From: Candidatus Bathyarchaeota archaeon
GTDB taxonomy: Archaea > Thermoproteota > Bathyarchaeia > 40CM-2-53-6
Direction: 5' to 3'
Length of the DNA: 64,000 nucleotides
NCBI GenBank assembly: GCA_963753065.1
Contig: CAVWAQ010000001.1
Span: 303,441-367,440, forward strand
Part shown: positions 14,533 through 34,293 of the stretch, piece after piece
Position numbering within the stretch: the stretch's first letter is position 1
Layout: every line of letters begins with the position of its first letter
Program-made: the position numbers and the translations under genes
Notes under the pieces: model-generated
The model's input: only the letters and a program-made list of their open reading frames with translations
The model's database searches: none
What the model was told of the DNA's origin: nothing

Positions 14533-14635
14533 ACATAGCGCGGAGATTCGTGCTGACTCGACTGAATGCGCTAGGTTAGATCTTGAAGAATTACTGAACC
14601 AGTGTGAGGGATGCTTAGCTTCGGGAACGCAAGGT

Positions 14636-15352: not shown

Positions 15353-15370
15353 TCAACCTCGTGCGTCTGC

Positions 15371-15817
15371 TTATGTTCCCTTGATGTTGAACTGCGAGTA
15401 CTGTCCTTCGAATTCCGTTGGGAGTGTCTTGAGAATCTCTACCCAGCGAAGGACGCCGTCAGAGTACTTCAGGAGTTTCATGAAGTTACCTTTGACCTTT
15501 AGCTTTCGAGTCATCAGCGCCTTGTTCGCTCCGAGCTTCCCCGTTAGGATCTCAACCCATGTCCCGTAGGGCGCAGATATGCGAAACGTCGCCTCCTTTT
15601 CCATGGGGTAAACCTCGACGATTTTTCCATCTTCAAGCCTGTAGCAGAGAGTAAGTGCTTGGGCGACTCCTTTCTCAGGCTCGGCGTCAAGCACGAGCGT
15701 GTAGATCTCGTTCTCACCTTTGGAGAGCTCAAGGTACTTTGCATCAGAATTCGTTCTCTTCAGAACTTCCTGCATATACTCCGGGGTACCGAGTTTCAAG
15801 AAGACCCACCTCGGCAT
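15371..15817 (-). CDS. SCP2 sterol-carrier-like domain protein
   Basis: 148 aa. The C-terminal GKLGANKALMTRKLKVKGNFMKLLK resembles the SCP2 motif (Gkl..A.m.Gkl.i.Gd). Confidence 0.55.
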   Translation of the reverse strand: MPRWVFLKLGTPEYMQEVLKRTNSDAKYLELSKGENEIYTLVLDAEPEKGVAQALTLCYRLEDGKIVEVYPMEKEATFRISAPYGTWVEILTGKLGANKALMTRKLKVKGNFMKLLKYSDGVLRWVEILKTLPTEFEGQYSQFNIKGT

Positions 15818-16059
15818 CTAATTGATCTTGGCTATGATCTTAACAGCTTCGGTGGGGCTTCGCCAACACATGTGCACACATCAGAGACTTGACATCGACA
15901 CGTTTCTTGATCAAGACTCCGTTCGGATCTGGCTTGGGTTTCGGGACATCAGCGATGTCTATCTTACGCATTCCACGGAAAACAGCGGATTCCCTCGGAC
16001 CTGATTAGTGCCTTGACAAGAGTTAATTTCTTCGATGCTGAGACCTCGCTCGGCAGGTC

Positions 16060-18081
16060 TTGATCCTCTTGACAGCTGACCCTAGCTCTGAGATGCAGGT
16101 TGGGCTCTACCGTGTGATGACGAGGATACGTCTTTTCGAGGAATCCATCGGGGGAACATATATCGACGAGATGGCTGAAGGCAGGAGCCTGCTCGGCGAG
16201 CTTCACCTGTCTACCGGACAGGAAGCAGTCGCTGCAGGGGTATCTGCTCATCTTCGAAGAGAGGACAGTGTGACTAGCTACTATCGCGGGCATGGCCACG
16301 CAATAGCGAAGGGCGTCGACATTGGAAAGATAGCCGCCGAAATCCTCGGGAGAGAAACCGGACTATGCAGGGGAAAAGGAGGTCACATGCACCTCTTCGA
16401 TTCATCAAACAACTTCTCCACCACTGGAATAGTTGGTGCTCAACTTCCGCTCGGACTTGGGCCTGCATTGGCCTTCAAGACTCTTGGAAAGGAGTTGGTT
16501 TCCACTATCTTCTTCGGGGATGGCGCAGCAAATCAAGGGACGTTCCACGAGTCCATGAACCTTGCGTCCGTTTGGAAGCTCCCAGTCGTCTTCGTCTGTG
16601 AGGATAATGCTTGGGCCATGTCGGTTCCAAAGTCAGCGAGCACTTCTGTGCAAGATAACGCCCAGCGGGCTGCGAGCTACAATATGCCAGGCGTCATAGT
16701 GGACGGAAACGATGTTCTCGACATCTGGAAAGTTGGGCGTGATGCAGTTGCTCGCGCAAGATCAGGCAAGGGACCTACTTTGCTCGACTGTAAGACCTAC
16801 CGGTTCCGAGGGCACATAGAGGGAGACCAGCAGATCTACCGCTCCAAAGAGGAGGCGGAGGCGTGGCTCAGTAAGGATCCGATCGCGAGAATGAAGGAGC
16901 ATTTCCTCGCAGGAGGCGTACTAGCTCAGTCCGAGCTTGATCGCATCGACGCAGAGGAGAAAGAGAAAGTCCGCAGCGCGCTCGAGTTTGCTAGGAGATC
17001 CCCTTGGCCTAGGCCGGAGGAGTCCGTGGATTCGGTATTCGAAAGAGCATCTGAACCAAGTGAGCCCTTGATTGAACCGGGGGCTCGAGAGATCACGTTC
17101 GGTGAGGCCATTACAGAGGCGATGAGGCAGGAGATGGAACGTGACAGTCGAGTCATTCTTCTCGGTGAAGATGTCAGGGTCGGCTTGGGAGGCGGAGCTT
17201 TCGGGTGCTCGACGGGCCTCCATGAGCAATTCGGGGATCAGAGGGTTCTTGACACGCCCATTTCGGAATCAGCCTTCATTGGAGCTTCGATTGGTTCAGC
17301 ATCCGTAGGCCTGAGGCCAATAGTGGAGCTTCAATTCATAGACTTCTTCGGAGTTGCTATGGATCAGATCTACAACCAGATGGCGAAGATCCACTACATG
17401 TCAGCGGGAGGGTTCAAAGTTCCGCTTGTCCTCCGCGCCGCCATGGGGGGAGGCTACGGAGACGCTGCTCAGGGTTCCCAGTGTCTCTACTCGATCTTCG
17501 CGCACGTCCCAGGGCTCAAAGTCGCGGTTCCATCTTCGCCTTACGATGCCAAGGGCATGCTAATCAGAGCAATTCGCTGTGACGACCCAGTCTTGTTCCT
17601 AGAGCACAAGCTTCTGTACAATGTCCCATTCCTTCCGTTCGGAGTAAGCGGCCCGGTTCCCGAGCAGGAATACGAAATTCCATTCGGCAAGGCTGTCAAG
17701 CGGCGTTCAGGCAAAGATGTGACGGTCGTTGCCGTGGCACTCATGGTGCACAAATCGCTTGCTGCAGCAGAAAGGCTCGCAAAGGAAGGAATCGACGTGG
17801 AGATAATCGACCTGCGCACAATTGTTCCACTAGATAGGGAATCGATTCTTGAATCAGTCGCAAAGACTGGGCGCCTCCTTGTAGTTGACGAGGATTATCT
17901 CAGCTTCGGACTATCAGGTGAGATTGTCGCGCTGACGTGCGAGCGTCTGGAGGGAAAGCTGAAGCGGCCACCGCAGAGAATTGCGGTCCCGGACGTCCCG
18001 ATACCAGCGAGTTGGCCAATGGAGCAGTATGTCATACCAAGTGAGGAAAGGATCTATCGCTCGATCCAATCCTTGATATGA
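16060..18081 (+). CDS. 2-oxoacid (pyruvate/acetoin-type) dehydrogenase E1 component, fused alpha-beta subunits
   Basis: The N-terminal half has the E1-alpha ThDP motifs (YRGHGHAIAKG, FFGDGAANQGTFHESMNLASVWKLPVVFVCEDN). The C-terminal half is E1-beta (ITFGEAITEAMRQEMERD...DTPISESAF...). The linker is about 14 aa. The start may be the ATG at 16093. Confidence 0.8.
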   Translation: MILLTADPSSEMQVGLYRVMTRIRLFEESIGGTYIDEMAEGRSLLGELHLSTGQEAVAAGVSAHLRREDSVTSYYRGHGHAIAKGVDIGKIAAEILGRETGLCRGKGGHMHLFDSSNNFSTTGIVGAQLPLGLGPALAFKTLGKELVSTIFFGDGAANQGTFHESMNLASVWKLPVVFVCEDNAWAMSVPKSASTSVQDNAQRAASYNMPGVIVDGNDVLDIWKVGRDAVARARSGKGPTLLDCKTYRFRGHIEGDQQIYRSKEEAEAWLSKDPIARMKEHFLAGGVLAQSELDRIDAEEKEKVRSALEFARRSPWPRPEESVDSVFERASEPSEPLIEPGAREITFGEAITEAMRQEMERDSRVILLGEDVRVGLGGGAFGCSTGLHEQFGDQRVLDTPISESAFIGASIGSASVGLRPIVELQFIDFFGVAMDQIYNQMAKIHYMSAGGFKVPLVLRAAMGGGYGDAAQGSQCLYSIFAHVPGLKVAVPSSPYDAKGMLIRAIRCDDPVLFLEHKLLYNVPFLPFGVSGPVPEQEYEIPFGKAVKRRSGKDVTVVAVALMVHKSLAAAERLAKEGIDVEIIDLRTIVPLDRESILESVAKTGRLLVVDEDYLSFGLSGEIVALTCERLEGKLKRPPQRIAVPDVPIPASWPMEQYVIPSEERIYRSIQSLI

Positions 18082-18410
18082 TGGTCTCTTAAGCTCGGAA
18101 TGACTGGCATGGGGCGTCTTCAAGAGACCTCAGGAGCTCCTGTCAAAGGAGCCGAGATAGGCAAACCCTCTAAGTAATGTTGGCCAAACCTCCGGGGTAG
18201 TATTCCGGGCACAGATAACCCGAAAGATGTCGGTGCCGCAATTGGTCCAGTGAAGTCTCTAGACTTCCTCCATGATCTGCTCATGGTGACTCTGGTGCTG
18301 GGCAGGTCGAATGTTTTCACTTGGAAGGATCCAGACACGTCGTAAACCGAAACTCCTATGAGCCCGCAAAGTCGGGTTTGACGGTCCAAACGCAGGATCG
18401 TGGTAAGGTC

Positions 18411-19043
18411 TTGAGTCAAGACGAAGGTCTTAAACAGGAAATAGTGAGGATTACCTCGTTACTATACGACAGGGGCCTGATAACCGCCGTCGGCGGCAAT
18501 GTGAGCGCCAGAACAGCCGGAGCCAAAGAATTCTGGATCACGCCAAGCAACCTCTTCAAGAAGGACGTGAGACCAGACGACCTAGTGAAATGCGATCTAC
18601 AGGCCAAAGTCGTCAAAGGACTCATGAAACCCTCGATCGAAACACCGTTCCACGCAGCCATCTTCCGGCGCCGGGAAGACGTTAACGCGGTAGTGCATGC
18701 CCACAACCCTATCGCGACCGCGCTCGGCGTCGCAGGTGTGAAGATCGAGCCCGTCACCATGGAAGGAGCCTTGTTTCTTGGAGAGGTGCCTATCGTACCT
18801 TTCAAGAATCCAGGAACGAACGCCCTGGCGGATGCCATTGCGGAGCATATCGTAGGTCACCGGGCTCTGATTCTGAAGAATCACGGGGTCATAGGAGTCG
18901 GCTACGAGCTCATCGAAGCCATGTCCGCTGTGGAAATCCTGGAGGAAGCAGCAACGATCATGTATGTCTCGAAGATATTCGGAAAGACGACGACAATTCC
19001 AAGTGAAGAGATAGAAGCAATCAAGAAACTCTACAAGATCTGA
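18411..19043 (+). CDS. class II aldolase/adducin-family protein (fuculose-1-P aldolase / MTRu-1-P dehydratase-like)
   Basis: GGNVSAR, FWITPSN and VVHAHNP (His metal ligands). The ORF track starts at 18321. The in-frame TTG at 18411 gives a family-typical N-terminus. Confidence 0.75.
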   Translation: MSQDEGLKQEIVRITSLLYDRGLITAVGGNVSARTAGAKEFWITPSNLFKKDVRPDDLVKCDLQAKVVKGLMKPSIETPFHAAIFRRREDVNAVVHAHNPIATALGVAGVKIEPVTMEGALFLGEVPIVPFKNPGTNALADAIAEHIVGHRALILKNHGVIGVGYELIEAMSAVEILEEAATIMYVSKIFGKTTTIPSEEIEAIKKLYKI

Positions 19044-21662: not shown

Positions 21663-23270
21663 TTGTCGACCGGAGGCGCCGAGGTATTCGTTCGAAAAGC
21701 AACTGGTGTGGTAAGAGAAGTATCTTCACATGAAGCATTGCTAGCAAACATTGCTCTGCTGCAGATCGGCCTGCCGGGTTTCTACGTTTACGTCACCTCA
21801 TGGCTCTTCCCAGGCTGGGATATCGCTACCGTATTCCTGATCAGTTTGATACCAGTCACTGCGCACGCCATTGTTCTCTCAATCATGACGAGTCAGTTTC
21901 CGAGGTCGGGCGCGGATTATGCGTGGGCAAGTCGAATCGTCCATCCGGTTTGGGTTGTGGCACCAAGTGTTGCCGGCCTTGTTCTCGGTACGCTGCTCAC
22001 TCCGGGTTTTCTCGACTGGGGGATGTACGGAGGAATTGGAACCATCGTCGAGAGTTTGAGCATTATCTTGAACAGACCTGATCTCCTGAGTGGTGCTGCG
22101 ACCGCCGTGGACCCGAATGTCAGATTTGTTTATGTTTCTGCATTCCTTGTGCTCTTTTTGGTATTGAACATAACACGCTTTTCATGGGTCAGAAAGTGGA
22201 TATCATTCTGGGCTATCGTCGGAACTGTCGCTGGGTTAGTTGCGGGAATCTCTCTACTCCTGAGTTCCCATGAGACTTTCGTTAGTCTCTGGAACCTGCA
22301 CATGGGTCAATACATGACTTACGATCAGGTCATCCAGACGGCTTCATCTAATGGCTATCCCTGGGTCGCAGCGGGCGCAGGAACCTTTGGAGCGTTCTTT
22401 GCAATTCTCGCTAACACCTACGAGATGAGCATTGGATATAGTGGTTCGATTTCATTTTCCGGTGAAATCAAGAACGCTAGGCGGAGCATCCCATATTCAG
22501 TTCTGGGATGCGTCTATCTCGGCGCACTTGTCCTCTTCCTGATGGTTTATGGAATCGCTCATGTGGTGGGTCAGCGGTTCGTCTACTCCGCATTGTACCT
22601 GTACTATGCTCGTCCAGACCTGTGGAAGAGTCCGTTCGTGGCTGATCCATTCTTATTCGCCACAATCGCTACAGGTTTGAATCCTATTCTCGCGGTTGTC
22701 ATTCCGCTGGGTTTGATTGCCGGAGCATTTGGCCTCTTAGGGATGTTTTACCTTGTCTTCAGCCGCTACCTGCTGGCGTACAGCTTCGACCGATTCATGC
22801 CCACCGCTATGGCTAGAGTCAGCAAGAGATACCACACCCCATGGCTTGCTCTACTCGTAATCTTCTTGATCTCAGAATGTGGTATTGCATTCAGCGCATA
22901 TTGGGCAACCGGAGTCATCTTCCTTGGGCTTCCGTTTAGATCGATGTCCATGTTGAACATAGTTGTGACCGTCGCAGCTGCTCTGCTATTTCCGTTGCTC
23001 GCTAAATCTCTCTACCAACGTTCTGACATAGTGCAACGTTACAAGTATGTCCTCGCGTTATGCTGTGTCATTGTGCTCGCGTTTTTCGCATTAGCCGTCC
23101 CAATGGTGCTATCGCATCCCGAGTACGGTGGTCCATCTAACCCCCAGATCGCAGTGTTCTACATTTCACTGCTGTTCATTGGACCAGTGATTTGGGGGCT
23201 GTCGAAGGTATACTGGAAACGAAGAGGTCTGGACATCACGTTAGCGTACAAGGAAATCCCACCACAGTAA
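21663..23270 (+). CDS. APC-superfamily amino acid/polyamine-type permease
   Basis: 535 aa with about 12-13 hydrophobic spans and a composition typical of archaeal APC permeases. TTG start. Confidence 0.65.
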   Translation: MSTGGAEVFVRKATGVVREVSSHEALLANIALLQIGLPGFYVYVTSWLFPGWDIATVFLISLIPVTAHAIVLSIMTSQFPRSGADYAWASRIVHPVWVVAPSVAGLVLGTLLTPGFLDWGMYGGIGTIVESLSIILNRPDLLSGAATAVDPNVRFVYVSAFLVLFLVLNITRFSWVRKWISFWAIVGTVAGLVAGISLLLSSHETFVSLWNLHMGQYMTYDQVIQTASSNGYPWVAAGAGTFGAFFAILANTYEMSIGYSGSISFSGEIKNARRSIPYSVLGCVYLGALVLFLMVYGIAHVVGQRFVYSALYLYYARPDLWKSPFVADPFLFATIATGLNPILAVVIPLGLIAGAFGLLGMFYLVFSRYLLAYSFDRFMPTAMARVSKRYHTPWLALLVIFLISECGIAFSAYWATGVIFLGLPFRSMSMLNIVVTVAAALLFPLLAKSLYQRSDIVQRYKYVLALCCVIVLAFFALAVPMVLSHPEYGGPSNPQIAVFYISLLFIGPVIWGLSKVYWKRRGLDITLAYKEIPPQ

Positions 23271-23407
23271 GACGACAAGGACCGCGTGAAGAGGTATCTG
23301 TTTACGAGCGGGTGAGTGTACTCACCCTCCTTGAATCGATGAGCAATCCGCAAAGACAGTCGACTTCATCAGTAGGGCCATTGGGAGAAATTAGGGAGGT
23401 TGGGATA

Positions 23408-24865
23408 ATGGGCGAGCAGGAGTATGCCATTTCTCATTGGCCCGATACTGAAGAAATCCTCGCAAAGCTGGACCGGCTAGTCAAGTTGCCTATGCGTCCG
23501 ATCAAACGTCAGCAGATGGCGAACTACTTGGAACATTTTGAGGCGGCCTGCAATCAGTCGAAGCAGTTGAACGAGGAAGCTAGGAGGTACATCCCAGGAG
23601 GCGTTCAGCATAATTTGGCCTTCAATTACCCCTTTCCCATAGCCGTCAGCAAGGCACAAGGACCATACCTTTGGGACGTGGACGGTAACCGATACATTGA
23701 TTTTCTCCAGGCCGGAGGCCCGACTCTTCTTGGTAACAACTATCCGGCCGTGCAGGAGAAGGTTTCTGAGCTGGTGCGAGAATGCGCGCCTGTAACTGGT
23801 CTTTTCCACGAGTTCGAGCTGAAGCTTGCGAAACTGATTAACAGCCACATGCCTTCGGTAGAGTTGTTTCGTATGCTCGGCAGCGGCACCGAGAGTGTTA
23901 TGGCAGCCATCAGAGCAGCCCGCACGTTTACTGACAAAGCCAGAATCGTCAAAGTGGGCGGCGCGTACCACGGGTGGAGCGACCAGATGGTCTACGGCCT
24001 ACATATACCAGGCACCGGTGCCATGGAAGCTTTCGGCATTCCAAGCGGTTGCCTCAAGGGAACCGACGAGGTCTTCCCAAACGATATCGACAGCCCGAAG
24101 GGCCTGAGGGCACTGCTTGAGAAGAACCAGAAGAAGGGCGGCACAGCCGCCGTGATCGTGGAGCCGCTGGGACCTGAAAGCGGTACTCGCCCAGTGACAC
24201 GCGACTACAACCGGAGGGTGAGGGAAGCATGTGACGAATTCGGTGCGCTGTTCATCTTCGACGAAGTCGTCACCGGTTTTCGTGTAGGTCTTGGTGGAGC
24301 ACAGGGCTACTTCAGCGTGAAACCGGACCTGACTGTATTTGGCAAATGCGTGGCCGGCGGGTACCCGGCGGCCGGTGGCTTGGGCGGCCGACGTGACATC
24401 ATGACATGCCTGTCTGCCGGTTTGGAAACTGGCAAACCGCGCGCCTACGTTGGCGGTACGCTTTCCGCGAATCCTCTGAGCTGCGCTGCAGGCTACTACT
24501 CCATTCTGGAAATAGAGAAGACAAAGGCTTACATCAAGGCAGGCCGCGCGGGCGACCGATTGTCTGACGGCCTACAGGGTATTATCAATAGGTACGGATT
24601 GCCCTACGTGGCCTTCAACCACGGCTCGATCTGCCATCTCGAGACCTCGGGCGCTATGCTCTTGGACATCACGGCTCCTAACGCGCTTGCCGAGGCCGGG
24701 CCACGCAAGCAAATGATGGAAGAGATGGGCGCGGCATTTACAGCCGAAGGCATAATCACGCTTGCTGGAAGCCGACTGTACACCAGCATGGCCGACACCG
24801 ACGAAGTCATTGACACCGCTCTGCAGGGATTCGACCGAGTCTTCCGCAACATTGAAAACGCGTAG
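23408..24865 (+). CDS. class-III (omega) aminotransferase, glutamate-1-semialdehyde aminomutase-like
   Basis: GPYLWDVDGNRYIDF, GSGTESVMAAIRAAR, FIFDEVVTGFR and FGKCVAGGYP (PLP-Lys position). I chose the ATG at 23408, preceded by GGGAGGT. The listed ORF start at 23192 overlaps the permease. Confidence 0.8.
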   Translation: MGEQEYAISHWPDTEEILAKLDRLVKLPMRPIKRQQMANYLEHFEAACNQSKQLNEEARRYIPGGVQHNLAFNYPFPIAVSKAQGPYLWDVDGNRYIDFLQAGGPTLLGNNYPAVQEKVSELVRECAPVTGLFHEFELKLAKLINSHMPSVELFRMLGSGTESVMAAIRAARTFTDKARIVKVGGAYHGWSDQMVYGLHIPGTGAMEAFGIPSGCLKGTDEVFPNDIDSPKGLRALLEKNQKKGGTAAVIVEPLGPESGTRPVTRDYNRRVREACDEFGALFIFDEVVTGFRVGLGGAQGYFSVKPDLTVFGKCVAGGYPAAGGLGGRRDIMTCLSAGLETGKPRAYVGGTLSANPLSCAAGYYSILEIEKTKAYIKAGRAGDRLSDGLQGIINRYGLPYVAFNHGSICHLETSGAMLLDITAPNALAEAGPRKQMMEEMGAAFTAEGIITLAGSRLYTSMADTDEVIDTALQGFDRVFRNIENA

Positions 24866-24879
24866 CATCGAGCATCCTA

Positions 24880-25299
24880 GTGGTGCGTATGTTGAACGAA
24901 GAATTGAGGCAGCGTTTGGCAAAAAAGATTAGCGAGGGCGAGTTCACAGCGAGTGATCTTCCCGACTTCCTCACAGTCTTCTGCGAAGTGTGCAACGAGT
25001 CCGAAGAAGTTCAGAGTGAGGTGGAGGCTTGGAACGCCAAGTTACAGCTTGATATCACAGACGGCGACAAGTTCTGGTTGACGATAGCCAATGGAAACTT
25101 CACTTGTGGGACCGGCGACATAGAAGCTCCCGATACTACTCTAAGGACCTCGGGCGATGTCGCAGCCCGAGTATTCACCGGCGAAAAAGACGCAACCTCC
25201 GCATACATGGATGGGTCGCTAAAGATCGGCGGCAGTCAACGTGAAGCACTCAAACTACGTGGCGTAATTGGCATTGTGCTCGACAGACTCCAAGGTTGA
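24880..25299 (+). CDS. SCP2 sterol-carrier-like domain protein
   Basis: DVAARVFTGEKDATSAYMDGSLKIGGSQREALKL matches the SCP2 C-terminal motif. 139 aa. Confidence 0.55.
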   Translation: MVRMLNEELRQRLAKKISEGEFTASDLPDFLTVFCEVCNESEEVQSEVEAWNAKLQLDITDGDKFWLTIANGNFTCGTGDIEAPDTTLRTSGDVAARVFTGEKDATSAYMDGSLKIGGSQREALKLRGVIGIVLDRLQG

Positions 25300-25356
25300 T
25301 CAACAGGCCCGTTCAGGAAATGCTGCGCTGTTCAGCTGGGCCAGCAGAGGGCGCCG

Positions 25357-26979
25357 ATGAAAGATCAGAACTACGTGTTGTCCTACGACATTGGGACCAC
25401 CGGTGACAAGACATGCCTGTACCGAATAGGCCCAAAGCTTGAGCTTGTGGATTCCTGCGTAGCAGAGTATCCTTTGCAGATTCTGCCTAATGGCGGCGCA
25501 GAGCAGAACGTGGACGATTGGTGGGGCGCCATCTGTGAAACGACTAATGCTATTCTTTCACGGGCCAAACTAGAGCGTTCGGAGATTCGTGGCATAGCCT
25601 TCTGCTGCCAGATGCTAGGCTCGGTAATGGTGGATTCGACCGGCCAACCTTTGCGTAACCCTATGATCTGGATGGACAGCAGGGCCACAAAACAAATCGA
25701 GGAATTCCTGTACACGGGCCTCGTACGCATCAGCAATTTCAACGCACTCATCACTTTGAAATCCTTGAGAATCACTGGAGCTCTCGCCGGGAGTTCAAAG
25801 GACCCATTATGGAAATACCACTGGGTTCGGGAGAACGAGCCAGAAATATTCAGAAAGGTGTACAAGTGGCTTGACGTGAAGGACTACCTGCTGCTACGAT
25901 GCACCGGCCACTATGGCATGACCCAAGACTCGGCTCACCTGACGTTCCTTTATGATACTCGACCCGGCCACTTGGGCTGGCACAAGGGGCTGTGTGACAC
26001 CTTCAGAGTCGACATGCGCCACTTGCCCCCGGTTGTAAAATCAACCGATATCGTGGGCGGCCTCACGAAAGAAGCCGCGGACGAAATGGGCCTTGACGAA
26101 GGGACACCAGTATTCGGCGGAGGAGGCGACCTGGCACTTGTCACTATTGGGTCCGGATGTGTGCAGCAATACGACACCCACATCTACATCGGCACCTCGG
26201 GTTGGCTGGCGGCGAATGTTGAGAGACGGATAGTTGACATCAGCAATTTCATGGGCTCAATCATCGGTGCTATCCCAGGCTGCTACAGTTACGTAGGGGA
26301 GCAGGAGACATCGGGCGTTTGCCTGCAATGGATCAGGGACCTACTGGCTCTAGACAGGGTTGCTGCATCTGCACGAAAGAGCGAGAGCGCAACAGAAAGA
26401 AAGGAACTAAGAGATCCGTACGACGCGGTTAACAAAGCCGCCAGTGAAACGACACCAGGTGCGGGAAACATCATCTTCGCACCATGGCTGCAAGGCAACC
26501 GCTCGCCCCGTGACGACCCCTACGCGCGTGGAATGTTCTTCAACATCAGTCTGAAAGCCGAGACGGGGATGCTGATCCGCGCCGTAATGGAGGGCGTGGC
26601 CTATCACAACCGCTGGATGCTAGACGCACTGGAGAAGAAGATCTCAAGGCAGAACTCCATACGGTTAGTGGGTGGTGGAGCAAAGTCAGAAGTGTGGTGC
26701 CAGATCATGGCGGATGTGACCGGGCGCACAATTGAGACAATCGAGAACCCACAGAATGCAGGGGCTTTCGGCGCAGCTGTTGTCACTGGCGTAGGGCTTG
26801 GTTTGCTTCCTTCCTTCCATGACGCCAAGTCATTCATTCCCGTCAAGAAGCGTTACACGCCGCGAACCGAATTCAAGGAGATATACGACCATAACTTCAA
26901 GGCGTTCGCCAAACTCTACGAGAATAACAAGAAGCTCTTTCGGCTGCTCAACCAAACCCAAAACGCGGTTGCCGTCTAG
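25357..26979 (+). CDS. FGGY-family carbohydrate kinase (xylulokinase/glycerol kinase-like)
   Basis: N-terminal YDIGTTGDK (actin-like ATPase phosphate-1), internal GGGDLALVTIG, C-terminal GGGAKSEVWCQIMADVTG. Confidence 0.85.
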   Translation: MKDQNYVLSYDIGTTGDKTCLYRIGPKLELVDSCVAEYPLQILPNGGAEQNVDDWWGAICETTNAILSRAKLERSEIRGIAFCCQMLGSVMVDSTGQPLRNPMIWMDSRATKQIEEFLYTGLVRISNFNALITLKSLRITGALAGSSKDPLWKYHWVRENEPEIFRKVYKWLDVKDYLLLRCTGHYGMTQDSAHLTFLYDTRPGHLGWHKGLCDTFRVDMRHLPPVVKSTDIVGGLTKEAADEMGLDEGTPVFGGGGDLALVTIGSGCVQQYDTHIYIGTSGWLAANVERRIVDISNFMGSIIGAIPGCYSYVGEQETSGVCLQWIRDLLALDRVAASARKSESATERKELRDPYDAVNKAASETTPGAGNIIFAPWLQGNRSPRDDPYARGMFFNISLKAETGMLIRAVMEGVAYHNRWMLDALEKKISRQNSIRLVGGGAKSEVWCQIMADVTGRTIETIENPQNAGAFGAAVVTGVGLGLLPSFHDAKSFIPVKKRYTPRTEFKEIYDHNFKAFAKLYENNKKLFRLLNQTQNAVAV

Positions 26980-27160
26980 TACGGCGAGCATTCTCTGAGT
27001 ACCGAGCAGTGAATGTCAAGTCCAACATATTCGGCGGGTCATCACGAGCCACTGGGACTTGTGGAGAAGAAACCAAGCACGCGGAAAGCAGGGACGCTGT
27101 CGGCTGCTGATAAGGCCGGTGCGATTACGGCCGTCATGCCGGGCTTGCCCGTCAAAGTGC
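26950..27160 (+). repeat. repeat copy A: kinase 3' end + intergenic + 5' part of the BCCP-like gene
   Basis: By-eye alignment: 26964-27056 (cgcggttgccgtctagtac..gcattctctga..gaatgtca.gtcca.ca.attc.gcg.g.tcatcacga.ccact) matches 28771-28862. 27144-27157 (cttgcccgtcaaag) matches 28892-28906. Confidence 0.7.
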
Positions 27161-27303
27161 TCAAGAAGGAAGGAGACAGAGTCCAAGCGGGAGAGGTGGT
27201 TCTAATACTTGAGGCAATGAAGAGACAGAACGAACTCCGCGCCAGTCAATCGGGCGTGATGAAGCAGATAAATATTCGAGAAGGCAAGTCGGTAAGCAGG
27301 TAG
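27013..27303 (+). CDS. biotinyl/lipoyl-carrier-type domain protein (BCCP-like, short)
   Basis: AVMPGLPVKVLKKEGDRVQAGEVVLILEAMKRQNEL is the biotinyl-domain consensus (MPG..v..V..GD.V..G..L..lEAMKM). Here the motif is EAMKR and the domain ends early. Confidence 0.65.
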   Translation: MSSPTYSAGHHEPLGLVEKKPSTRKAGTLSAADKAGAITAVMPGLPVKVLKKEGDRVQAGEVVLILEAMKRQNELRASQSGVMKQINIREGKSVSR

Positions 27304-27317
27304 AAAGGTGCTCATGC

Positions 27318-28724
27318 TTGGAGAAACTCGGAACGGACATGTCTACATGGGCAGAGGCACTGATGGACGGCATCGACATCGACAAGTTCATCGTGTGCAC
27401 GTATATCGTGTGCTTGCCCTATGATTACGAGAACGCATTCGCCAGTATCGCCAAGGTAATCGCGGAGGAACAGTCGATCGGGACGTGGACGCACGTCCCC
27501 GAGGAAACACCCGAAGTGAGGCGCCGCTTCATCGGCAAGGTGCTTCAATGCGTCGAGATTCCGCAGTATGAGGTCGTCCGCCCCGATCGGAAGAACCGGG
27601 AACCCTTCGGCGACAAGCAGATCCCGCTCATCCCGTACCTCATGACGATCGGCTACCCAGCGGACTTGTTCAACGACGACAACTTCAGCCTCGTCTTGAC
27701 GTCGATTTACGGCAACATTTCCATGGTCGGCCCCATCCGCCTTGTCAGCGTTCGCTTTGGCAAGGAGACCATGAACCGGTACAAAGGCCCGACCTTCGGT
27801 CTCGAGGGCATTTACAAGAAGCTCAAGATCCCGATCGCTCCCGACAAAGCGACGAGGCCGCTCACGATCAACATGATCAAGCCCAAGACGGGCTATACCA
27901 AGGACGTCGGCAAGAAGATCTTCTGGGAGGCAGCCATCGGTGGCGTCGACATCATCAAGGACGACGAGATGATCGCTAACTGCGCTCAGATGGACAACGC
28001 GCTGGAGGAACGCGTCCCCATGTACATGGAGATGCGTGACAAGAAATTGGCCGAAACGGGCGAGGAGACCATCTACACCGTGAACATTTCGGACCGCATG
28101 GATCGGATGTTGGAGATGTACGACAAGGTAGTTTCGATGGGTGGTAACGGCGTGATGATCAACTACATCAACTGTGGCTGGTCGTGCGTCAAGCCATTAA
28201 CTGACAAAGGCAAACTGATCGTGCTCGGGCACACGGACGGCGGTGGTGCCTACTATGTGTCGCCCCTGTCCGGTATCTCGTCCGACCTCGTGCTCGGTAT
28301 CTTCCCGCGCATGCTCGGTATCGACATCCCGCTCGTCCCTGCCCCCTACGGCAAAGCCCCATACATCGTCGACCGGTACCTCCAGCTCTGCAAGTCGCTC
28401 ACCATGCCCCTCGGCTACGGCGACAACCAGCTCAAGGCCTGCTTGCCCTTCCCCTCCGGCGGTATCCAGACCCAGCACATTCCCCAGCTCGTTAAGGATC
28501 TCGGCCCCAACATCGGTGTCGGCACGGGCGGCGGTATCCACGCCCATCCCATGGGTACCATAGCCGGCGCCAAGGCTTTCCGCCAGGCGTTCGACGCCTG
28601 CATGGCAGGCGAGTTCGACCTCAAGAAATACGCTAAGGAGAAGAACTTGCAGGAGCTCGCCGTCTCGTTGGGCATGATGGAACTGGCTCACGATGGTTTG
28701 AAAACCATGATGAAAAAGAAGTAA
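27318..28724 (+). CDS. RuBisCO large-subunit-like protein (form IV RLP-like; not a canonical carboxylase by eye)
   Basis: EEQSIGTW, YGNIS, IKPKTG, GGVDIIKDDE, PSGGI and GTGGGIHAHP align to RuBisCO E60/T65/W66, N123, K175/K177, K201/D203/E204, S379-G381 and G403/G404. R295, H298 and H327 appear replaced (LGHTDGGG; VPAPYGK). AAAGGTG lies 8 nt before the TTG at 27318. Confidence 0.85.
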   Translation: MEKLGTDMSTWAEALMDGIDIDKFIVCTYIVCLPYDYENAFASIAKVIAEEQSIGTWTHVPEETPEVRRRFIGKVLQCVEIPQYEVVRPDRKNREPFGDKQIPLIPYLMTIGYPADLFNDDNFSLVLTSIYGNISMVGPIRLVSVRFGKETMNRYKGPTFGLEGIYKKLKIPIAPDKATRPLTINMIKPKTGYTKDVGKKIFWEAAIGGVDIIKDDEMIANCAQMDNALEERVPMYMEMRDKKLAETGEETIYTVNISDRMDRMLEMYDKVVSMGGNGVMINYINCGWSCVKPLTDKGKLIVLGHTDGGGAYYVSPLSGISSDLVLGIFPRMLGIDIPLVPAPYGKAPYIVDRYLQLCKSLTMPLGYGDNQLKACLPFPSGGIQTQHIPQLVKDLGPNIGVGTGGGIHAHPMGTIAGAKAFRQAFDACMAGEFDLKKYAKEKNLQELAVSLGMMELAHDGLKTMMKKK

Positions 28725-28754
28725 TCCGGGTTCGAATCACATTGGGTTCGAACC

Positions 28755-28906
28755 TCCACAATCCAGCAGCACGGTTGCCGTCTAGTACAACATGCATTCT
28801 CTGACACAAGGGTACTGAATGTCATGTCCAGCACATTCAGCGAGCTCATCACGAACCACTAGATAATCCGTTGATTGCTTCGTCCGACCGACTTGCCCGT
28901 GCAAAG
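28755..28906 (+). repeat. repeat copy B: decayed duplicate of the kinase-3'/BCCP-5' junction, downstream of the RLP gene
   Basis: Roughly three quarters identity to copy A by eye over about 95 nt, plus a second 14-nt block. The BCCP-like reading frame here stops after about 15 codons, so the copy is non-functional. Confidence 0.7.
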
Positions 28907-28992: not shown

Positions 28993-29646
28993 TTGCGTAC
29001 ACTGAATCTCAGCCCGGACGAGCTGCTTACTACGACGAGGGCGGTACGTAGACGCCTAGATCTTTCTCGACCGGTCGAGCGCGAGGTAATAGAAGAATGC
29101 GTCGCCATTGCTCAGCAGGCTCCTACTGGGTCGAATAGGCAGAACTGGCATTTCGTGGTGGTCACCGATTCCAGTAAACGTGCCGCGCTTGCGAGCCTCT
29201 ATCGTAAAGGCGCGGAGATCTACCACTCTCTTCCAGCTGCAGGGCATGGCAAGAGACTCGACGACCCCGCGAGGAATACCACGCAGGCAAGAGTTAGGGC
29301 CTCGTCTATGTACTTGATTGAACATATCCACGAGGTTCCAGTACACGTTATCCCATGCATCGAGGGCCGTACGGATGGTCTCCCGACGGTCGCCCAGGCT
29401 GCGCAGTGGTGTTCAATTGTGCCTGCTGCATGGAGTTTCATGCTTGCCGCACGAGCCCGAGGTCTCGGCACAACCTTCACCAGTTTTCACTTGTTCTTTG
29501 AGGAAGATGCTGCGAAGCTACTCGGTATTCCTTTCGAGGCAGTCATGCAGACAGCGCTGATTCCAATGGCTTACACGAAAGGCGCGAGGTTCAAGCCTGG
29601 CCCCCGTGAGCCTGTCGGCACCATTCTGCATTGGGACGATTGGTAG
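28993..29646 (+). CDS. nitroreductase-family protein
   Basis: TTRAVRRRLDLSRPVEREVIEECVAIAQQAPTGSNRQNWHFVVV is a typical nitroreductase N-terminal pattern. 217 aa. Confidence 0.7.
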   Translation: MRTLNLSPDELLTTTRAVRRRLDLSRPVEREVIEECVAIAQQAPTGSNRQNWHFVVVTDSSKRAALASLYRKGAEIYHSLPAAGHGKRLDDPARNTTQARVRASSMYLIEHIHEVPVHVIPCIEGRTDGLPTVAQAAQWCSIVPAAWSFMLAARARGLGTTFTSFHLFFEEDAAKLLGIPFEAVMQTALIPMAYTKGARFKPGPREPVGTILHWDDW

Positions 29647-30021: not shown

Positions 30022-31042
30022 ATGAATGCCATAAAGTCGATTCAGACTGTTCCATATGCGGATTACACGAAGCATGGGATGACTAAGGATATTCTGCTCG
30101 GCATGCTTCGGAAGATGATCGAGATCCGAAGGTTCGAGGAGCGCGTGGAACGGCTATTCCTCCAAGAAGGGGCGCTCATTGGACCATCGCACCTCTATTT
30201 GGGAGAGGAGGCAGTCGCAGCTGGCGCTGTCGGTGCGCTCAACGATAATGACCTGATCACTAGTACTTATCGAGGCCACGGCCACGCTATCGCAAAAGGC
30301 GTTCCCATGAAGCCTCTGATGGCAGAGCTATTCGGGAAATCCACGGGCACCTGCAAAGGACTAGGCGGTTCAATGCATGTCGCGATCTATCCCGAAAAAG
30401 GATCCGTATATGCGACAGCGATTGTCGGAAGCGGAGTTCCAATAGCGACCGGCTTAGGGCTTGCGCTTCAGGACGGAAGGAAAACGGCGAGTCGCTATGA
30501 CGTTCTTTGGGGACGGTGCAACTAACACCGGCGCCTTCCACGAAGGAATCAACCTCGCATCCGTCTGGAAGGTCCCAGTCATCTTCGTCTGTGAGAACAA
30601 CATGTACGCTATGTCAACTCGAGCCGACTATGCAGTGGCAGCGGAAAGCGTTGCGGCTAGGGCGCAGACCTACAGGATGCAAAGTATGGTTGCTGATGGA
30701 AACGACGCGGTCGCGGTCTACTTGGCCGCCAAAGAAGCGATCGGTGCTGCTCGAAATGGTCAAGGTCCAACCCTTCTTGAATGCATGACCTACAAGCTCC
30801 ACGGCCATGGGGTCTACGACAAAGGTGACTACAGACCCAAGGAAGAGGTCGAAGCGTGGCTCAAGCGAGATCCTATCAACGGGCTTGAGGACAAGCTCCT
30901 GAAAGCAAAGTTGGCTACCCAAGCAGATTTCGACAAGATTGAGAAAGAGGTCGCGGCCGAAGTGGAAGAGTCTGTTTCATTCGCGAAAAACAGTCCCGTT
31001 CTGCCGTTCGATGAACTTGCGAAGTACGTGTACGCGAGGTAG
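30022..31042 (+). pseudogene. 2-oxoacid dehydrogenase E1 alpha subunit, frame shift at the A4 run 30481-30484
   Basis: ORF 30022..30525 (YRGHGHAIAKG...GLGLALQDGRK) and ORF 30461..31042 (RRVAMTFFGDGATNTGAFHEGINLASVWKVPVIFVCENN) join into one E1-alpha if one A is removed. Confidence 0.85.
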
Positions 31043-31048
31043 AGAGAG

Positions 31049-32023
31049 ATGCCAGAGCTGACATACGCCGACGCTTTGCGCGAAGCTCTGCGCGAGGAGA
31101 TGCTCAGAGATCCTCGTGTCGTGTTGATGGGCGAGGAGATCGGAGTCTTCGAGGGGGTCTACAAAGTCACTCGAGGACTGCTAAAGGAGTTTGGCCCGGA
31201 GAGAGTTAGGGACACTCCGATCTCTGAAGCTGCGATTGCGGGCGCCGCTGTGGGTGCCGCGTTAGGCGGCCTCAAGCCGGTTGCCGAGATCATGTACATG
31301 GATTTTCTGACAATATGCCTCGATCAGATAGCGACGAACGCATCAAAGATGCACTTCATGAGCGGCGGCAAGCTCAAGGTTCCATTCGTCCTCAGAACAC
31401 AGTACAGCCTCGGACGAGTGCATGGTGCGCAGCATTCCCAGTTCTTTCCGTCAATATTCTTCCAAGTGCCTGGCCTGAAAGTTGTCTTACCATCCACACC
31501 ACATGATGCCAAAGGTCTCCTGAAAGCTGCCATCCGAGAGGACAACCCAGTGGTCTTCATTGAAAGTGGCATGCTCTACAGAACCAAAGGCCCGGTTCCT
31601 GACGGGGAATATCTCGTGCCCTTGGGCCAATGTGATGTCAAGAAAACGGGTAGTGATATCACAATTGTCGCAGTCTCGAGAACTGTAACTGAGGCCTTGG
31701 CCGCGGCCGTGAAACTGGAAGAGCAGGGCATCACCGCAGAAGTCATAGACCCGAGGACGATCCAGCCGCTTGATTTGGCAACAATCTTGGAGTCTGTGAA
31801 GAAAACTGGCAGGTTGATAATCGCCTCTGACGATGTCAAGTGTGGAGGCATCGGATCAGAGATAGCGGCCCAGGTAGTGGAAGAAGCCTTTGACTCTCTA
31901 GATGCTCCCGTCTTGCGTGTCGCCTCACCGGACATGCCAATCCCGTTTTCGCCAACGCTCGAACAGGCGTACATGCCTAATGCGCAGAAGATCATTGAAG
32001 CAGCAAAGAAACTGATTGGGTGA
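31049..32023 (+). CDS. 2-oxoacid dehydrogenase E1 beta subunit
   Basis: 324 aa. LTYADALREALREEMLRDPRVVLMGEEIG...VRDTPISEAAIAGAAVGAAL is the transketolase-like pyrimidine-binding domain plus C-terminal domain. Confidence 0.9.
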   Translation: MPELTYADALREALREEMLRDPRVVLMGEEIGVFEGVYKVTRGLLKEFGPERVRDTPISEAAIAGAAVGAALGGLKPVAEIMYMDFLTICLDQIATNASKMHFMSGGKLKVPFVLRTQYSLGRVHGAQHSQFFPSIFFQVPGLKVVLPSTPHDAKGLLKAAIREDNPVVFIESGMLYRTKGPVPDGEYLVPLGQCDVKKTGSDITIVAVSRTVTEALAAAVKLEEQGITAEVIDPRTIQPLDLATILESVKKTGRLIIASDDVKCGGIGSEIAAQVVEEAFDSLDAPVLRVASPDMPIPFSPTLEQAYMPNAQKIIEAAKKLIG

Positions 32024-32029
32024 GCTACA

Positions 32030-33223
32030 GTGATGTTCAGGGTTGCAATGCCCCGTCTAGATCCCGGCATGCAGTCAGGCAAAATAGTCGAGTGGCTGAA
32101 AAAGGAAGGAGACCGCGTCGAGAAGGACGTGCCGATTGTCAGGATCGAAGGAGAGAAGACCACTTTCGAAGTGAACTCCCCTGGACCGGGGGTGGTCCGG
32201 AAATTCCTGTTTGAGCCCGGCATGGATGTTCAGGTAGGGCAAACGATCGCCCTTGTAGGTGAGCCAAACGAGCCGCTGCCGGTCGAAGCCGAAGCACCGG
32301 TCACTCTTGAGCCTGTCGTGGTGCAAGAAGCCATCGTTGCTCCTCCTGTTGTTTCACGACTGGCAGAGCCTCCAGCCTCGCCGGTCGCGCGTAAGATGGC
32401 CCGAGAGGCCGGCATCGACATTTCGAAGATCAAGGGGTCCGGACCTGGTGGTAGAATAGTTCGTGAGGACATTCAGAGAGCAATCGAGCAGATGAAGGCT
32501 CAGCCGGTAGTGGCCGCTGTTTCCGCCCAAGGAGCTAGGGCTGTTCCGGTTGCGAGGACGATTAAACTGGCGGGGAAGCGGAAGGCTACGGCGGAGCGGC
32601 TCTCGTACGGTTTCCACACGACCGTTCCGGTCACGATCACGATGGAGACAAGGATGGAGGCGGTCCTTGAGCAGAGAAAACAGCTTCACAGCCAAACTGG
32701 TGAGGAGATCTCCATAACGGCATTCGTTGTCAAGGCTGCTGCAAAGGCTCTGGAAGATCACCAGATGATCAACTCGTCTCTTGAGGGAGACGAACTTCGA
32801 ATCTATGGTGACATCAATGTCGCCGTGGCAATCAACACGCCTGACGGACTTGTTGCGCCGGTGATACCACAGACGAACAGGAGGTCGTTGTCTGAGGTAT
32901 CGCGTGACATTCGTGAACTGACAGAACGAGCTGTGCAGAACAAGCTCACCGTTTCAGATCTTACCGGAGGCACATTCACCGTGTCGAACCTTGGCGGTTA
33001 TGGTGTCGATCTCTTTGCGCCAGTCATCAACCCGCCGCAATGCGCAATCCTTGGCTTCGGCCGAACCTGTGAGAGACCCGTAATCGTCGAAAAACAGGTG
33101 CGAGCGGCATCAGTCACGACACTCTCGTTAGTATTCGATCACAGGATCGTCGACGGCGTCCCGGCGGCTCAGTACCTTCAGCGAGTCAAAGAGCTGCTAG
33201 AAGATCCGAAGAAGCTCGTATGA
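32030..33223 (+). CDS. dihydrolipoamide acyltransferase (E2)
   Basis: N-terminal lipoyl domain (IVRIEGEKTTFEV), peripheral subunit-binding domain (ASPVARKMAREAGIDISKIKGSGPGGRI), and catalytic domain with DHRIVDG. Confidence 0.9.
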   Translation: MMFRVAMPRLDPGMQSGKIVEWLKKEGDRVEKDVPIVRIEGEKTTFEVNSPGPGVVRKFLFEPGMDVQVGQTIALVGEPNEPLPVEAEAPVTLEPVVVQEAIVAPPVVSRLAEPPASPVARKMAREAGIDISKIKGSGPGGRIVREDIQRAIEQMKAQPVVAAVSAQGARAVPVARTIKLAGKRKATAERLSYGFHTTVPVTITMETRMEAVLEQRKQLHSQTGEEISITAFVVKAAAKALEDHQMINSSLEGDELRIYGDINVAVAINTPDGLVAPVIPQTNRRSLSEVSRDIRELTERAVQNKLTVSDLTGGTFTVSNLGGYGVDLFAPVINPPQCAILGFGRTCERPVIVEKQVRAASVTTLSLVFDHRIVDGVPAAQYLQRVKELLEDPKKLV

Positions 33224-33241
33224 TCGCCCTTGGTTCGGCAG

Positions 33242-34273
33242 CTAAGGCGTGATTGCCACTTTGATCGCCGCGCCTTTCTGCATTAGACGTAACGCTGCCT
33301 CAACCTCAGTCAGTTTCATTCTGTGAGTGACGAGCGATGCAACCTTCACCTGACCTGTCGAGATCAGCCTCAAGGACTCGCGCACATCACTTGGCGTGTG
33401 ATGAAATACTCCCTTCAATGTGAGTTCTCCGTAGTGCACTGTGCCCGTGTCAATTGAGGCAGTGCTTCCTGCTGGGCATCCCCCGAAGAGTACGGTCGTT
33501 CCCCCTTTCCTAGTCGCCCGTACGGCCAACTCCCAAGTCTCTGGTTTTCCAACAGCTTCGATTGTGACATCTGCTCCGCGGTTGCCAGTTAACGCCCTCA
33601 CCTGACTCACAGTATCGCTTGAGGTCACCGTCTTGTCCGCACCCAGTTGGGCGGCCCTCTGCAACCTCTCAGGGCTCGCGTCGGCAACGACAACGGTCCC
33701 GGCACCGCGGACTTTCGCAAGCTGCACGTGCAACAGTCCGATGGGCCCAGCACCAATGACGAAAACGAGATCGCGTGCCTTGATATTGGACAGTTCGATT
33801 CCGTGAACTACGCACGCCAATGGTTCAACGAATGCGGCAGCCTCGAATGAGATGTCCTTGGGAATCTCGTAGGTGTTCTGCTTCACGATTCGTGCTGGCA
33901 GCCGTACATACTCGGCATACGCGCCAGGGGACGAGAATCCGATAAGGACCTCGTCCAGTCGATCGCACAGGTTTGGTTTGCCGATCCGGCAATAGTAGCA
34001 GGACATGCAAGGTGCCGAATTCGCAGCTACGACTCTCATGCCCTCCTCAAAGCCTTCGACTTCTTCTCCTACCTTCTCCACAGTTCCTGCAAATTCGTGT
34101 CCTATGGTAAGTGGAGGAATCGCGAGCCTATGGCCGCGAAGGAACATCTTGAGATCCGTACCACATGTAAGCGCCACATGATTTCGGATCAGTAGTTCGC
34201 CCCTGCCTATGTTGGGCACGTCGACCTCTTCGACACGCAAGTCGCCAGGAGCATAGAAACGGGCCGCTTTCAA
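33242..34273 (-). CDS. Zn-dependent alcohol/polyol dehydrogenase (MDR family; sorbitol/threonine/butanediol-DH-like)
   Basis: GHEFAGTVEKVG, structural-zinc Cys cluster CMSCYYCRIGKPNLC, and VIGAGPIGLL NAD fold. Confidence 0.85.
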   Translation of the reverse strand: MKAARFYAPGDLRVEEVDVPNIGRGELLIRNHVALTCGTDLKMFLRGHRLAIPPLTIGHEFAGTVEKVGEEVEGFEEGMRVVAANSAPCMSCYYCRIGKPNLCDRLDEVLIGFSSPGAYAEYVRLPARIVKQNTYEIPKDISFEAAAFVEPLACVVHGIELSNIKARDLVFVIGAGPIGLLHVQLAKVRGAGTVVVADASPERLQRAAQLGADKTVTSSDTVSQVRALTGNRGADVTIEAVGKPETWELAVRATRKGGTTVLFGGCPAGSTASIDTGTVHYGELTLKGVFHHTPSDVRESLRLISTGQVKVASLVTHRMKLTEVEAALRLMQKGAAIKVAITP

Positions 34274-34293
34274 TCGATGTTCACATCCAGAAA

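Follow-up and report, generated by a model that had tools for sequence, protein, structure and literature searches.

RuBisCO-like proteins (RLPs) have been assigned only a handful of reactions (PMC10176493). The origin of carboxylation within the RuBisCO superfamily is still unresolved. The locus described here raises the question of what an RLP does in the company of an apparent biotinyl carrier. In the window, by which we mean the whole stretch of 64,000 nucleotides of Candidatus Bathyarchaeota archaeon that was analysed, six open reading frames (ORFs) on the + strand span positions 21663-28724 with gaps of 14-134 nt; the last encodes an RLP, which starts 14 nt past the stop of an ORF with a biotinyl/lipoyl domain. 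The initial annotation had described these as six co-directional genes with short gaps, and the strand, the positions and the domain assignments were all borne out, every Pfam domain call of the six ORFs exceeding its gathering score. As set out below, what looked like a carrier partner is the result of gene decay, and the family to which the RLP and its linked kinase belong represents an uncharacterised variant of a familiar enzyme type. The reading that we favour, with modest confidence, is a catabolic or salvage operon of five genes (permease, aminotransferase, SCP2 protein, FGGY kinase, and RLP) with a dead fragment of a biotin carboxyl carrier protein (BCCP) gene between kinase and RLP, in which phosphorylation by the kinase would be followed by enolisation by the RLP and then by amination or reduction. 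The six ORFs are as follows.

21663-23270, + strand: permease of the APC superfamily (Pfam AA_permease, weak, 40 bits), a lineage-specific member
23405-24865 (ORF open from 23192), + strand: class-III aminotransferase (AT), glutamate-1-semialdehyde (GSA) aminomutase-like, pyridoxal 5'-phosphate enzyme (Pfam Aminotran_3)
24880-25299, + strand: SCP2-domain protein (Pfam SCP2), a lineage-specific member
25357-26979, + strand: FGGY-family carbohydrate kinase, XylB-like, below the cut-off (Pfam FGGY_N and FGGY_C)
27013-27303, + strand: BCCP gene relic, in this genome an open ORF of 96 codons (Pfam Biotin_lipoyl, 54 bits)
27318-28724, + strand: RLP of 468 aa (Pfam RuBisCO_large, 126 bits, and RuBisCO_large_N, 38 bits)

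The gene cluster and the carrier relic

The order permease-AT-SCP2-FGGY-fragment-RLP recurs identically in a more distant relative (L102), together with a class II aldolase gene and two reverse-strand genes upstream. Between the window and L102, amino acid identity and the ratio of nonsynonymous to synonymous rates (ω) are 96.2 % and 0.05 for the RLP, 92.6 % and 0.10 for the AT, 91.6 % and 0.22 for the permease, 84.3 % and 0.20 for the FGGY kinase, and 82.4 % and 0.27 for the SCP2 protein; all ω values given here were obtained by the NG86 approximation from few substitutions, a point that counts against the interpretation. All five intact genes are thus under purifying selection, and since the gene order is also the same in L102, the cluster is not a chance arrangement. 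The RLP is by far its most constrained gene (ω=0.05-0.18 across comparisons); the SCP2 gene, with ω=0.27-0.40, is retained in L011-13 and in L102. The RLP starts with TTG in the window and with ATG in L010, L011, and L014, and the true start of the AT is likely at 23405, as the 486-aa version matches homologs over 99 % of its own length. The FGGY gene ends 338 nt upstream of the RLP, separated from it by nothing but the relic; the AT gene is found another two genes upstream. RLP, kinase, and AT all score below every NCBIfam equivalog cut-off. The permease is the predicted importer of the cluster, and the FGGY kinase the predicted maker of the phosphorylated substrate of the RLP. No PDB relative of the permease was found, so that it offers no hint of what the substrate is.

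The carrier ORF was the most unusual element of this arrangement, and the initial annotation had left two roles open for it, either vestigial or serving a carboxyl-transfer step. Its relatives fall into two groups, proteins of 94-96 aa at 81-90 % identity and BCCP-type proteins of ~158 aa at 50-72 % identity. Aligned to the 158-aa Asgard BCCPs, the 96-aa ORF matches residues ~62-148, so that ~60 aa at the N-terminus and ~9 aa at the C-terminus (...MRQVLxxIE) are missing. It stops 8-10 residues before the end of solved biotinyl domains (64/74 for 2d5d, 67/77 for 1dcz, 70/80 for 1bdo) and has 26 residues past the target lysine K70, where a complete biotinyl domain has about 34-35; the final β-strand of the biotinyl fold is therefore absent. 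The EAMKR motif pointed out in the initial annotation is present, but its AMKR departs from the canonical biotinylation motif (A/V)MKM and is unique to the window ORF, all 16 aligned relatives having MKM (AMKM in place of AMKR).

Selection points in the same direction. Among four genomes, the fragment has accumulated 20 nonsynonymous and 7 synonymous changes (ω~0.9, p=0.48 against neutrality), whereas the adjoining RLP in the same four genomes shows 23 nonsynonymous and 54 synonymous changes (ω~0.12, p=1.5e-19); the two substitution ratios differ (Fisher p=8.7e-5). In L011-13 an AT-rich insertion shortens the C-terminus of the fragment further, and in L102 the fragment has no ATG, carries an internal double frameshift, and has lost its stop, the ORF continuing 46 nt into the RLP gene. 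The fragment was found only beside RLPs that are at least 96 % identical to that of the window; it is missing beside RLPs of 78-90 % identity and at all 80 loci of the species-representative genomes surveyed. We conclude from the sequence comparisons that the carrier ORF is a relic, pseudogene-like though still an open reading frame in this genome. The decay into a fragment that the initial annotation had envisaged is what was found (truncation, neutrality, and the broken L102 copy), and its carboxyl-transfer option has to be dropped.

A working biotinyl or other swinging-arm protein that passes a carboxyl group to or from the RLP would fit an ORF that is open in four genomes, matches Biotin_lipoyl with 54 bits, still has its target lysine, and ends 14 nt before the RLP start. 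Such a role is contradicted already by the missing last β-strand and N-terminal domain, the neutral evolution, the broken copy in L102 and the shortened ones in L011-13, and the absence of the ORF wherever the RLP is less than 96 % identical as well as at the loci of all 80 representatives. In agreement with the initial annotation, neither a biotin carboxylase nor a carboxyltransferase was found in the 64-kb window, and a biotin ligase is absent from it as well. We therefore regard a functional carrier as extremely improbable, being ruled out by domain completeness, motif, selection, and distribution alike.

The likely parent of the fragment can be named. In L015-17, related Asgard genomes, a full-length BCCP gene closes an operon of the order biotin ligase (BirA), Carboxyl_trans (12S), HMGL-like/PYC_OADA (5S), BCCP, and this operon adjoins an ADH-ADH-E2-E1b-E1a block that is also present in the window (30022-35391, 70-88 % aa identity). 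Because of this shared neighbour, the fragment was probably derived by local rearrangement. The window itself does not hold the operon: by synteny with L015 it has the ADH-ADH-E2-E1b-E1a block in common, but 12S, 5S, BirA, and the full BCCP are absent. The ORF thus resembles the 1.3S/BCCP subunit of transcarboxylase-type enzymes in its identity of 55-72 % to the 158-aa Asgard BCCPs and in its recognisable biotinyl core and target lysine, and differs from it in lacking both ends, in the AMKR motif, in neutral evolution, in the broken L102 copy, and in having no partner enzymes nearby. It is a cautionary case, in which an exotic-looking domain combination turns out to be a gene fragment, probably left by rearrangement.

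Active site and family placement of the RLP

The analysis assigned the window to an Asgard archaeon; the closest homologs of the RLP carry the names Promethearchaeota, Lokiarchaeota, or Sigynarchaeota. Its AlphaFold2 model (pLDDT 86.9, pTM 0.87) matches solved structures at TM 0.86-0.92 and 25-30 % identity in Foldseek, about equally well for MtnW-type, Chlorobium-type, and form III structures. Active-site residues were read from an alignment of 131 sequences, composed of representatives of an exhaustive search (1,204 superfamily representatives) and of plasmid-borne annotated references (mtnW, oiaX, form I RuBisCO, and a four-carbon-kinase-linked RLP), with the numbering checked on the annotated form I at E60, N123, K175, K177, K201, D203, E204, H294, R295, H298, H327, K334, S379, and G381. 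At these 14 positions the window RLP (signature ENKKKDEHTGLKSG) differs from form I only by R295T, H298G, and H327L; T173M is an additional replacement. The carbamylation and metal site, K175 together with K201-D203-E204, is invariant in the window RLP and all 23 aligned clade members, and the P1 phosphate loop is intact (T65, W66, S379, G380, G381, G403, G404). The active-site reading of the initial annotation, according to which metal and P1 sites are kept and R295, H298, and H327 lost, is thus upheld by the alignment, which adds K334 to the retained residues.

In neighbour-joining (NJ) trees with 100 bootstraps, the RLP falls into a tight Asgard clade (monophyletic in 100/100; signature ENKKKDEHTALKSG, with T, A, L at 295, 298, 327). 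This clade groups with a broad clade of members from Chloroflexota, Actinomycetota, Bathyarchaeia, Thorarchaeota, and others (signature ENKCKDEHMAVKSG, with M, A, V at the same three positions), excluding all RuBisCO-signature, MtnW, and OiaX-type sequences in 99/100 bootstraps. With its Archaeoglobus member (L046), the broad clade may correspond to the lineage formerly called 'IV-Aful'. The window RLP groups with the ENKC...MAVKSG sequences and carries the signature of the FGGY-linked RLP clade, a grouping proposed in this work, namely E60, N123, K175, K201, D203, E204, H294, and K334 with non-basic residues at 295, 298, and 327. It is, as judged from the sequence, a form IV protein in the broad sense, a member of the RuBisCO large-subunit superfamily that is neither a form III RuBisCO nor an MtnW enolase, since the tree excludes both and the catalytic lysine of the enolase is lacking. 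The assignment to form IV outside the carboxylase lineage made in the initial annotation thus agrees with the phylogeny.

Two named functions had to be weighed against this placement, that of a 2,3-diketo-5-methylthiopentyl-1-phosphate (DK-MTP-1-P) enolase of methionine salvage and that of a true form III RuBisCO of AMP salvage. The best NCBIfam and PDB matches of the RLP are of the MtnW type, and homologs are named DK-MTP-1-P enolase at JGI. The MtnW/YkrW enolases (G. kaustophilus 2oek, B. subtilis 2zvi, and the P. megaterium mtnW operon, L098) have the same fold (TM ~0.9) and form the neighbouring clade in the NJ tree, the two grouping without RuBisCO in 83/100 bootstraps. They share with the window RLP K175, K201-D-E, H294, and the P1 loop, and the P2 site is lost in both. 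The operons run parallel as well: that of MtnW likewise unites a kinase and a class II aldolase-family dehydratase with its RLP and an aminotransferase, but its kinase is MtnK and its aminotransferase of class I, where the window has an FGGY kinase and a class-III enzyme.

Differences lie in the active site. At the columns of N123, E60, K177, and K334, the MtnW enolases have Lys (the general base), Gly, V/M/C, and Ser, respectively (signature GKK(V/M)KDEHPSLSSG), whereas the window RLP has N, E, K, and K. The catalytic lysine (Lys98 in G. kaustophilus) is present in all 16 MtnW-type sequences including mtnW and 2oek, and is replaced by Asn in the window RLP and all clade members. Model scores are far below the cut-offs (PRK09549, 236 vs 409 bits; TIGR03332, 185 vs 514 bits), and the MtnW clade is monophyletic without the window RLP. 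A methionine-salvage context was not found either: when the Mtn proteins of P. megaterium were used as tblastn queries, a single mtnA/e2b2-like gene was detected, frameshifted and 22 kb distant, at 50.5 kb, and mtnK, mtnB, mtnX, and ARD were not found in the window.

As to a salvage RuBisCO, papers on Asgard archaea assign type IV as well as type III RbcL to nucleotide salvage, for type IV without analysis (PMC11291895, PMC6646929). The likeness to form III archaeal RuBisCO is considerable, with a comparable fold match and 11 of the 14 catalytic positions the same, including E60, N123, K175, K177, K201, H294, and K334. Replaced are T173 and the distal phosphate ligands R295, H298, and H327, so that the complete set binding ribulose-1,5-bisphosphate (RuBP) is lacking, with T, G, and L in its place. 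The rubisco_III model gives 213 bits against a cut-off of 497, and the separation from RuBisCO-signature sequences in 99/100 bootstraps applies to bona fide RuBisCO of forms I-III. Either named function is accordingly very unlikely for the window RLP, and the finding corrects the practice of labelling such genes DK-MTP-1-P enolase (JGI) or of counting them as nucleotide-salvage RuBisCO when Asgard metabolism is reconstructed.

Two further RLP types were compared. OiaX and other apiose-pathway RLPs and the D-hamamelose RLP oxygenase are encoded beside the kinase that makes their substrate, as proposed for the window, and follow an enediolate route (PMC10176493). They differ from the window RLP in that the kinase is a four-carbon acid-sugar kinase and not of the FGGY family, in their signatures (DGKAKDEHRWQKGG and ENKNKDEHRFHKSG), and in their distant position in the tree. 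An identity as OiaX (3-oxo-isoapionate-4-phosphate decarboxylase) was rejected on these grounds and on an NF042437 score of 138 vs 700 bits. The R. rubrum-type RLP, a 5-methylthio-D-ribulose-1-phosphate isomerase (PMC10176493), uses a ketose 1-phosphate whose distal tail is uncharged. For the window RLP, too, the loss of the P2 site and the presence of an FGGY partner point to a substrate of this kind. The weak PDB match to 3qfw (74 bits) does not support membership in that group.

Gene partners and the proposed reaction

The neighbourhood survey covered 80 RLP loci in species-representative genomes, for which we called and clustered the ORFs ourselves. At 42 of the 72 broad-clade loci the RLP has an FGGY kinase gene within 3 kb; among the non-Asgard loci the count is 38/43, the kinase gene being immediately upstream in the same orientation at 30/43. 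Of the 72 loci, 44 have a third gene before or after these, which within 3 kb is a saccharopine-dehydrogenase-like (SacchDH) NADP enzyme at 23 loci, a class-III AT at 14, an OYE flavoprotein at 8 (Thorarchaeota), and a nitroreductase-family protein at 5 broad-clade loci, the last of a subfamily different from that encoded in the window. SacchDH and class-III AT never occur in the same locus and thus look like alternatives. Class II aldolase-family genes within RLP operons were seen in L079 and in Bathyarchaeia; the order in L079 is AT, AldII, TetR, FGGY, RLP.

The window genes belong to these partner families. The FGGY kinase, which scores 290 bits with TIGR01312 (cut-off 380), is 31-44 % identical to FGGY kinases directly upstream of broad-clade RLPs and only 25-29 % identical to other FGGY paralogs. 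The AT is 42-76 % identical to RLP-adjoining aminotransferases in 11 loci, and an AT also adjoins the tight-clade RLP of L004. Its highest values are found with RLP-linked enzymes of bacteria, namely 76 % with that of a Syntrophales metagenome-assembled genome and 65-68 % with those of Chloroflexota/Bacillota, against 43-51 % with Asgard ATs (the AT of L079 is 76 % identical). RLP and FGGY show no such bacterial affinity, which suggests that the AT gene may have been acquired by inter-domain transfer. The nearest solved structures of the AT are GSA aminomutases. In contrast, homologs of SCP2 protein, permease, and carrier were found near none of the RLPs at the 80 loci. Of the functional route drawn in the initial annotation, which joined uptake, transamination, phosphorylation, and an RLP-catalysed rearrangement, the link of the RLP to FGGY kinase and class-III AT is thus recovered across many phyla, while SCP2 protein and permease are lineage-specific and do not accompany RLPs elsewhere. 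Likewise, the comparison of neighbourhoods that it had called for found kinase and AT to recur and the carrier at none of these loci.

On this basis the following sequence of events is proposed. The FGGY kinase would phosphorylate the terminal hydroxyl of a ketose- or polyol-type compound, and the RLP would hold the resulting monophosphate via its P1 loop, while the distal pocket, which without R295, H298, and H327 is small and apolar (T/M, G/A, L/V), would accept an uncharged tail. Carbamylated K201 with Mg2+ (bound by D203 and E204), together with K175 and H294, may then remove the proton alpha to the carbonyl to give a cis-enediolate, and reprotonation or elimination would yield an isomeric ketone, an alpha-dicarbonyl, or an enone. 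The third enzyme would transaminate, reductively aminate, or reduce this product; if the route is catabolic and begins with an amine taken up from outside, it may run in the opposite direction. Formation of an enediolate is common to all characterised RLPs (PMC10176493). The order of kinase, RLP enolisation, and amination or reduction is proposed because P1 loop, carbamate/Mg site, K175, and H294 are intact and the distal site is small and apolar, and a GSA-aminomutase-like AT, which fits alpha-dicarbonyl or alpha-aminoketone chemistry, agrees with the proposed product.

Several observations weigh against extending this scheme to the window lineage or against the scheme as such. The two clades are only ~45 % identical, and at positions 177, 295, and 327 the tight one has K, T, and L where the broad one has C, M, and V, so that their reactions could differ. 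The kinase link is looser in the tight clade, where in most genomes the RLP is solitary, as in several of them, or has an FGGY gene 7-8 kb off (L001-3, L006-7). In L011-13 the adjacent FGGY gene is deleted down to a remnant of 41 aa, with the RLP intact. Finally, E60, N123, and K334, residues which handle CO2 or carboxylate, are retained although a plain isomerase does not need them.

The looser kinase link bears on whether the adjacency in the window has any functional meaning, since the tight-clade RLP might act alone or with unlinked partners, and kinase, AT, SCP2 protein, and permease might serve another pathway. Within the tight clade, an FGGY gene immediately upstream combined with a third gene is confined to the window lineage and L102, with L004 showing it in part; neither FGGY nor AT adjoins the RLP in 6 of 8 contexts of this clade, the RLP remains strongly constrained in L011-13 despite the deletion, and the flanks of the RLP are hot spots of rearrangement. 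The kinase link is accordingly weaker for the tight subclade than for the broad clade. A merely accidental adjacency nevertheless appears improbable to us: FGGY-RLP and AT-RLP neighbours recur independently in many phyla and also in L004 and L102, the window FGGY is nearest to RLP-linked FGGY kinases, and in L001-3 and L006-7 an FGGY gene of 44-45 % identity is no more than 8 kb from the RLP.

The retained residues raise the chief competing explanation of the reaction itself, in which the RLP would not simply transfer a proton but would act on C-C bonds of a monophosphorylated enediolate in the manner of RuBisCO, by carboxylation, decarboxylation, or transcarboxylation/hydrolysis. In RuBisCO, E60, N123, K175, K201, H294, and K334 serve to bind CO2 or the carboxylated intermediate and to cleave the latter. 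The whole clade keeps these six residues, the tight clade also K177, and only the ligands of the P2 phosphate are lost; K334 is likewise kept in the apiose-pathway RLPs, which act by decarboxylation or transcarboxylation (PMC10176493). K334 is not diagnostic, however, being kept also in many RLP groups of unassigned function; partners related to CO2, carbonic anhydrase among them, were not seen; and the partner enzymes (AT, SacchDH-like, OYE, nitroreductase) are easier to reconcile with a carbonyl or enone product than with two acids. We consider such chemistry unlikely. A similarly low probability is given to the more specific proposal that the clade, branching beside the MtnW enolases, comprises carboxylases, decarboxylases, or C-C lyases of the RuBisCO type with an FGGY-made ketose monophosphate instead of RuBP as substrate; this would explain why E60, N123, K175, K177, H294, and K334 have been kept while only the distal phosphate site was lost.

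The broader significance lies in a widespread RLP family of anaerobic archaea and bacteria that combines nearly the whole catalytic apparatus of RuBisCO with a fixed kinase partner and a few alternative downstream enzymes. The fixed kinase and the small set of alternatives make the function of the RLP directly testable. No paper linking an RLP with an FGGY kinase or with these partners was found in the literature searched, which is weak evidence, as most subscription journals lay outside its coverage.

Some gene contexts of related RLPs and kinases may be added. In L010 the FGGY gene is frameshifted near codon 511. Tight-clade genomes that do not have the cluster (L001-3, L006-7, L018) share a conserved RLP neighbourhood. 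Besides an FGGY kinase gene at a distance of 7-8 kb, it comprises genes for an M28 peptidase, for an MFS transporter that is transcribed divergently from the RLP, and for an FAD-linked oxidase with a CCG-domain protein (D-lactate/glycolate dehydrogenase-like). Loki-type broad-clade RLPs (L034-L093, Promethearchaeota) are preceded by proteins of ~1400 aa and ~367 aa of unknown families, without FGGY; downstream on the opposite strand are a leucine-rich repeat protein, an unknown 357-aa protein, and a class I/II aminotransferase.

Repeats, flanking genes and other features

The flanks of the cluster hold the following additional elements.

18321-19043, + strand: class II aldolase/adducin-family protein (Pfam Aldolase_II), 2.6 kb upstream of the cluster; possible accessory gene, low confidence
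26953-27053, + strand: upstream copy of a ~100-nt direct repeat, extending from the 3' end of the FGGY gene over the spacer into the relic ORF, of which it takes in the first ~14 codons
28759-28860, + strand: downstream copy of this repeat, just past the RLP; window-specific
28993-29646, + strand: nitroreductase-family flavoprotein (Pfam Nitroreductase), directly downstream of the RLP; possible accessory gene, low confidence

The class II aldolase gene occupies the same relative position in L102 (ω=0.20), and a nitroreductase gene is found downstream of the RLP in L010, too. The two repeat copies, spaced by 1806 nt, bracket the unit of relic and RLP and are 74 % identical over 84 nt and then 93 % over 15 nt. 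The downstream copy is not present in L010, L014, and L011 and combines window-like with L102-like states in a mosaic. These features suggest that the repeat may be an old duplication or the scar of a recombination or rearrangement. The 36 nt past the RLP stop (28725-28760, TAATCCGGGTTCGAATCACATTGGGTTCGAACCTCC) are conserved in L010 and L014 and can pair as an 8-bp hairpin (GGTTCGAA/TTCGAACC). A tRNA or att site behind the T-arm-like motif GGTTCGAATC after the RLP was considered and rejected, as no tRNA is predicted there.

In the window (9156-14051), genes for a myo-inositol-1-phosphate synthase, a transaldolase-like fusion protein, and DUF4432 form a block upstream of the cluster. In L102 the same block (11267-16182) is inverted and directly downstream of the RLP, which places a rearrangement breakpoint right after the RLP.

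Two genes of the window are split. The E1-alpha gene of the 2-oxoacid/acetoin dehydrogenase-type cluster is divided into ORFs at 30022-30525 and 30461-31042, while its ortholog in L015 is a single gene of 312 aa; the split is either a frameshift or an assembly indel. The gene of an MtnA/e2b2-family isomerase (5-methylthioribose-1-phosphate or ribose-1,5-bisphosphate isomerase type, 50539-51565) is spread over two reading frames. Together these splits hint at assembly indel errors or at several pseudogenes. Elsewhere in the window, an MttB-family methyltransferase lies beside a URO-D/MtaA-like protein (5174-7837), a 785-aa protein (35738-38095) carries the glycyl-radical signature RVAGYSDYF, and a phage-type integrase is encoded at 46470-47366.

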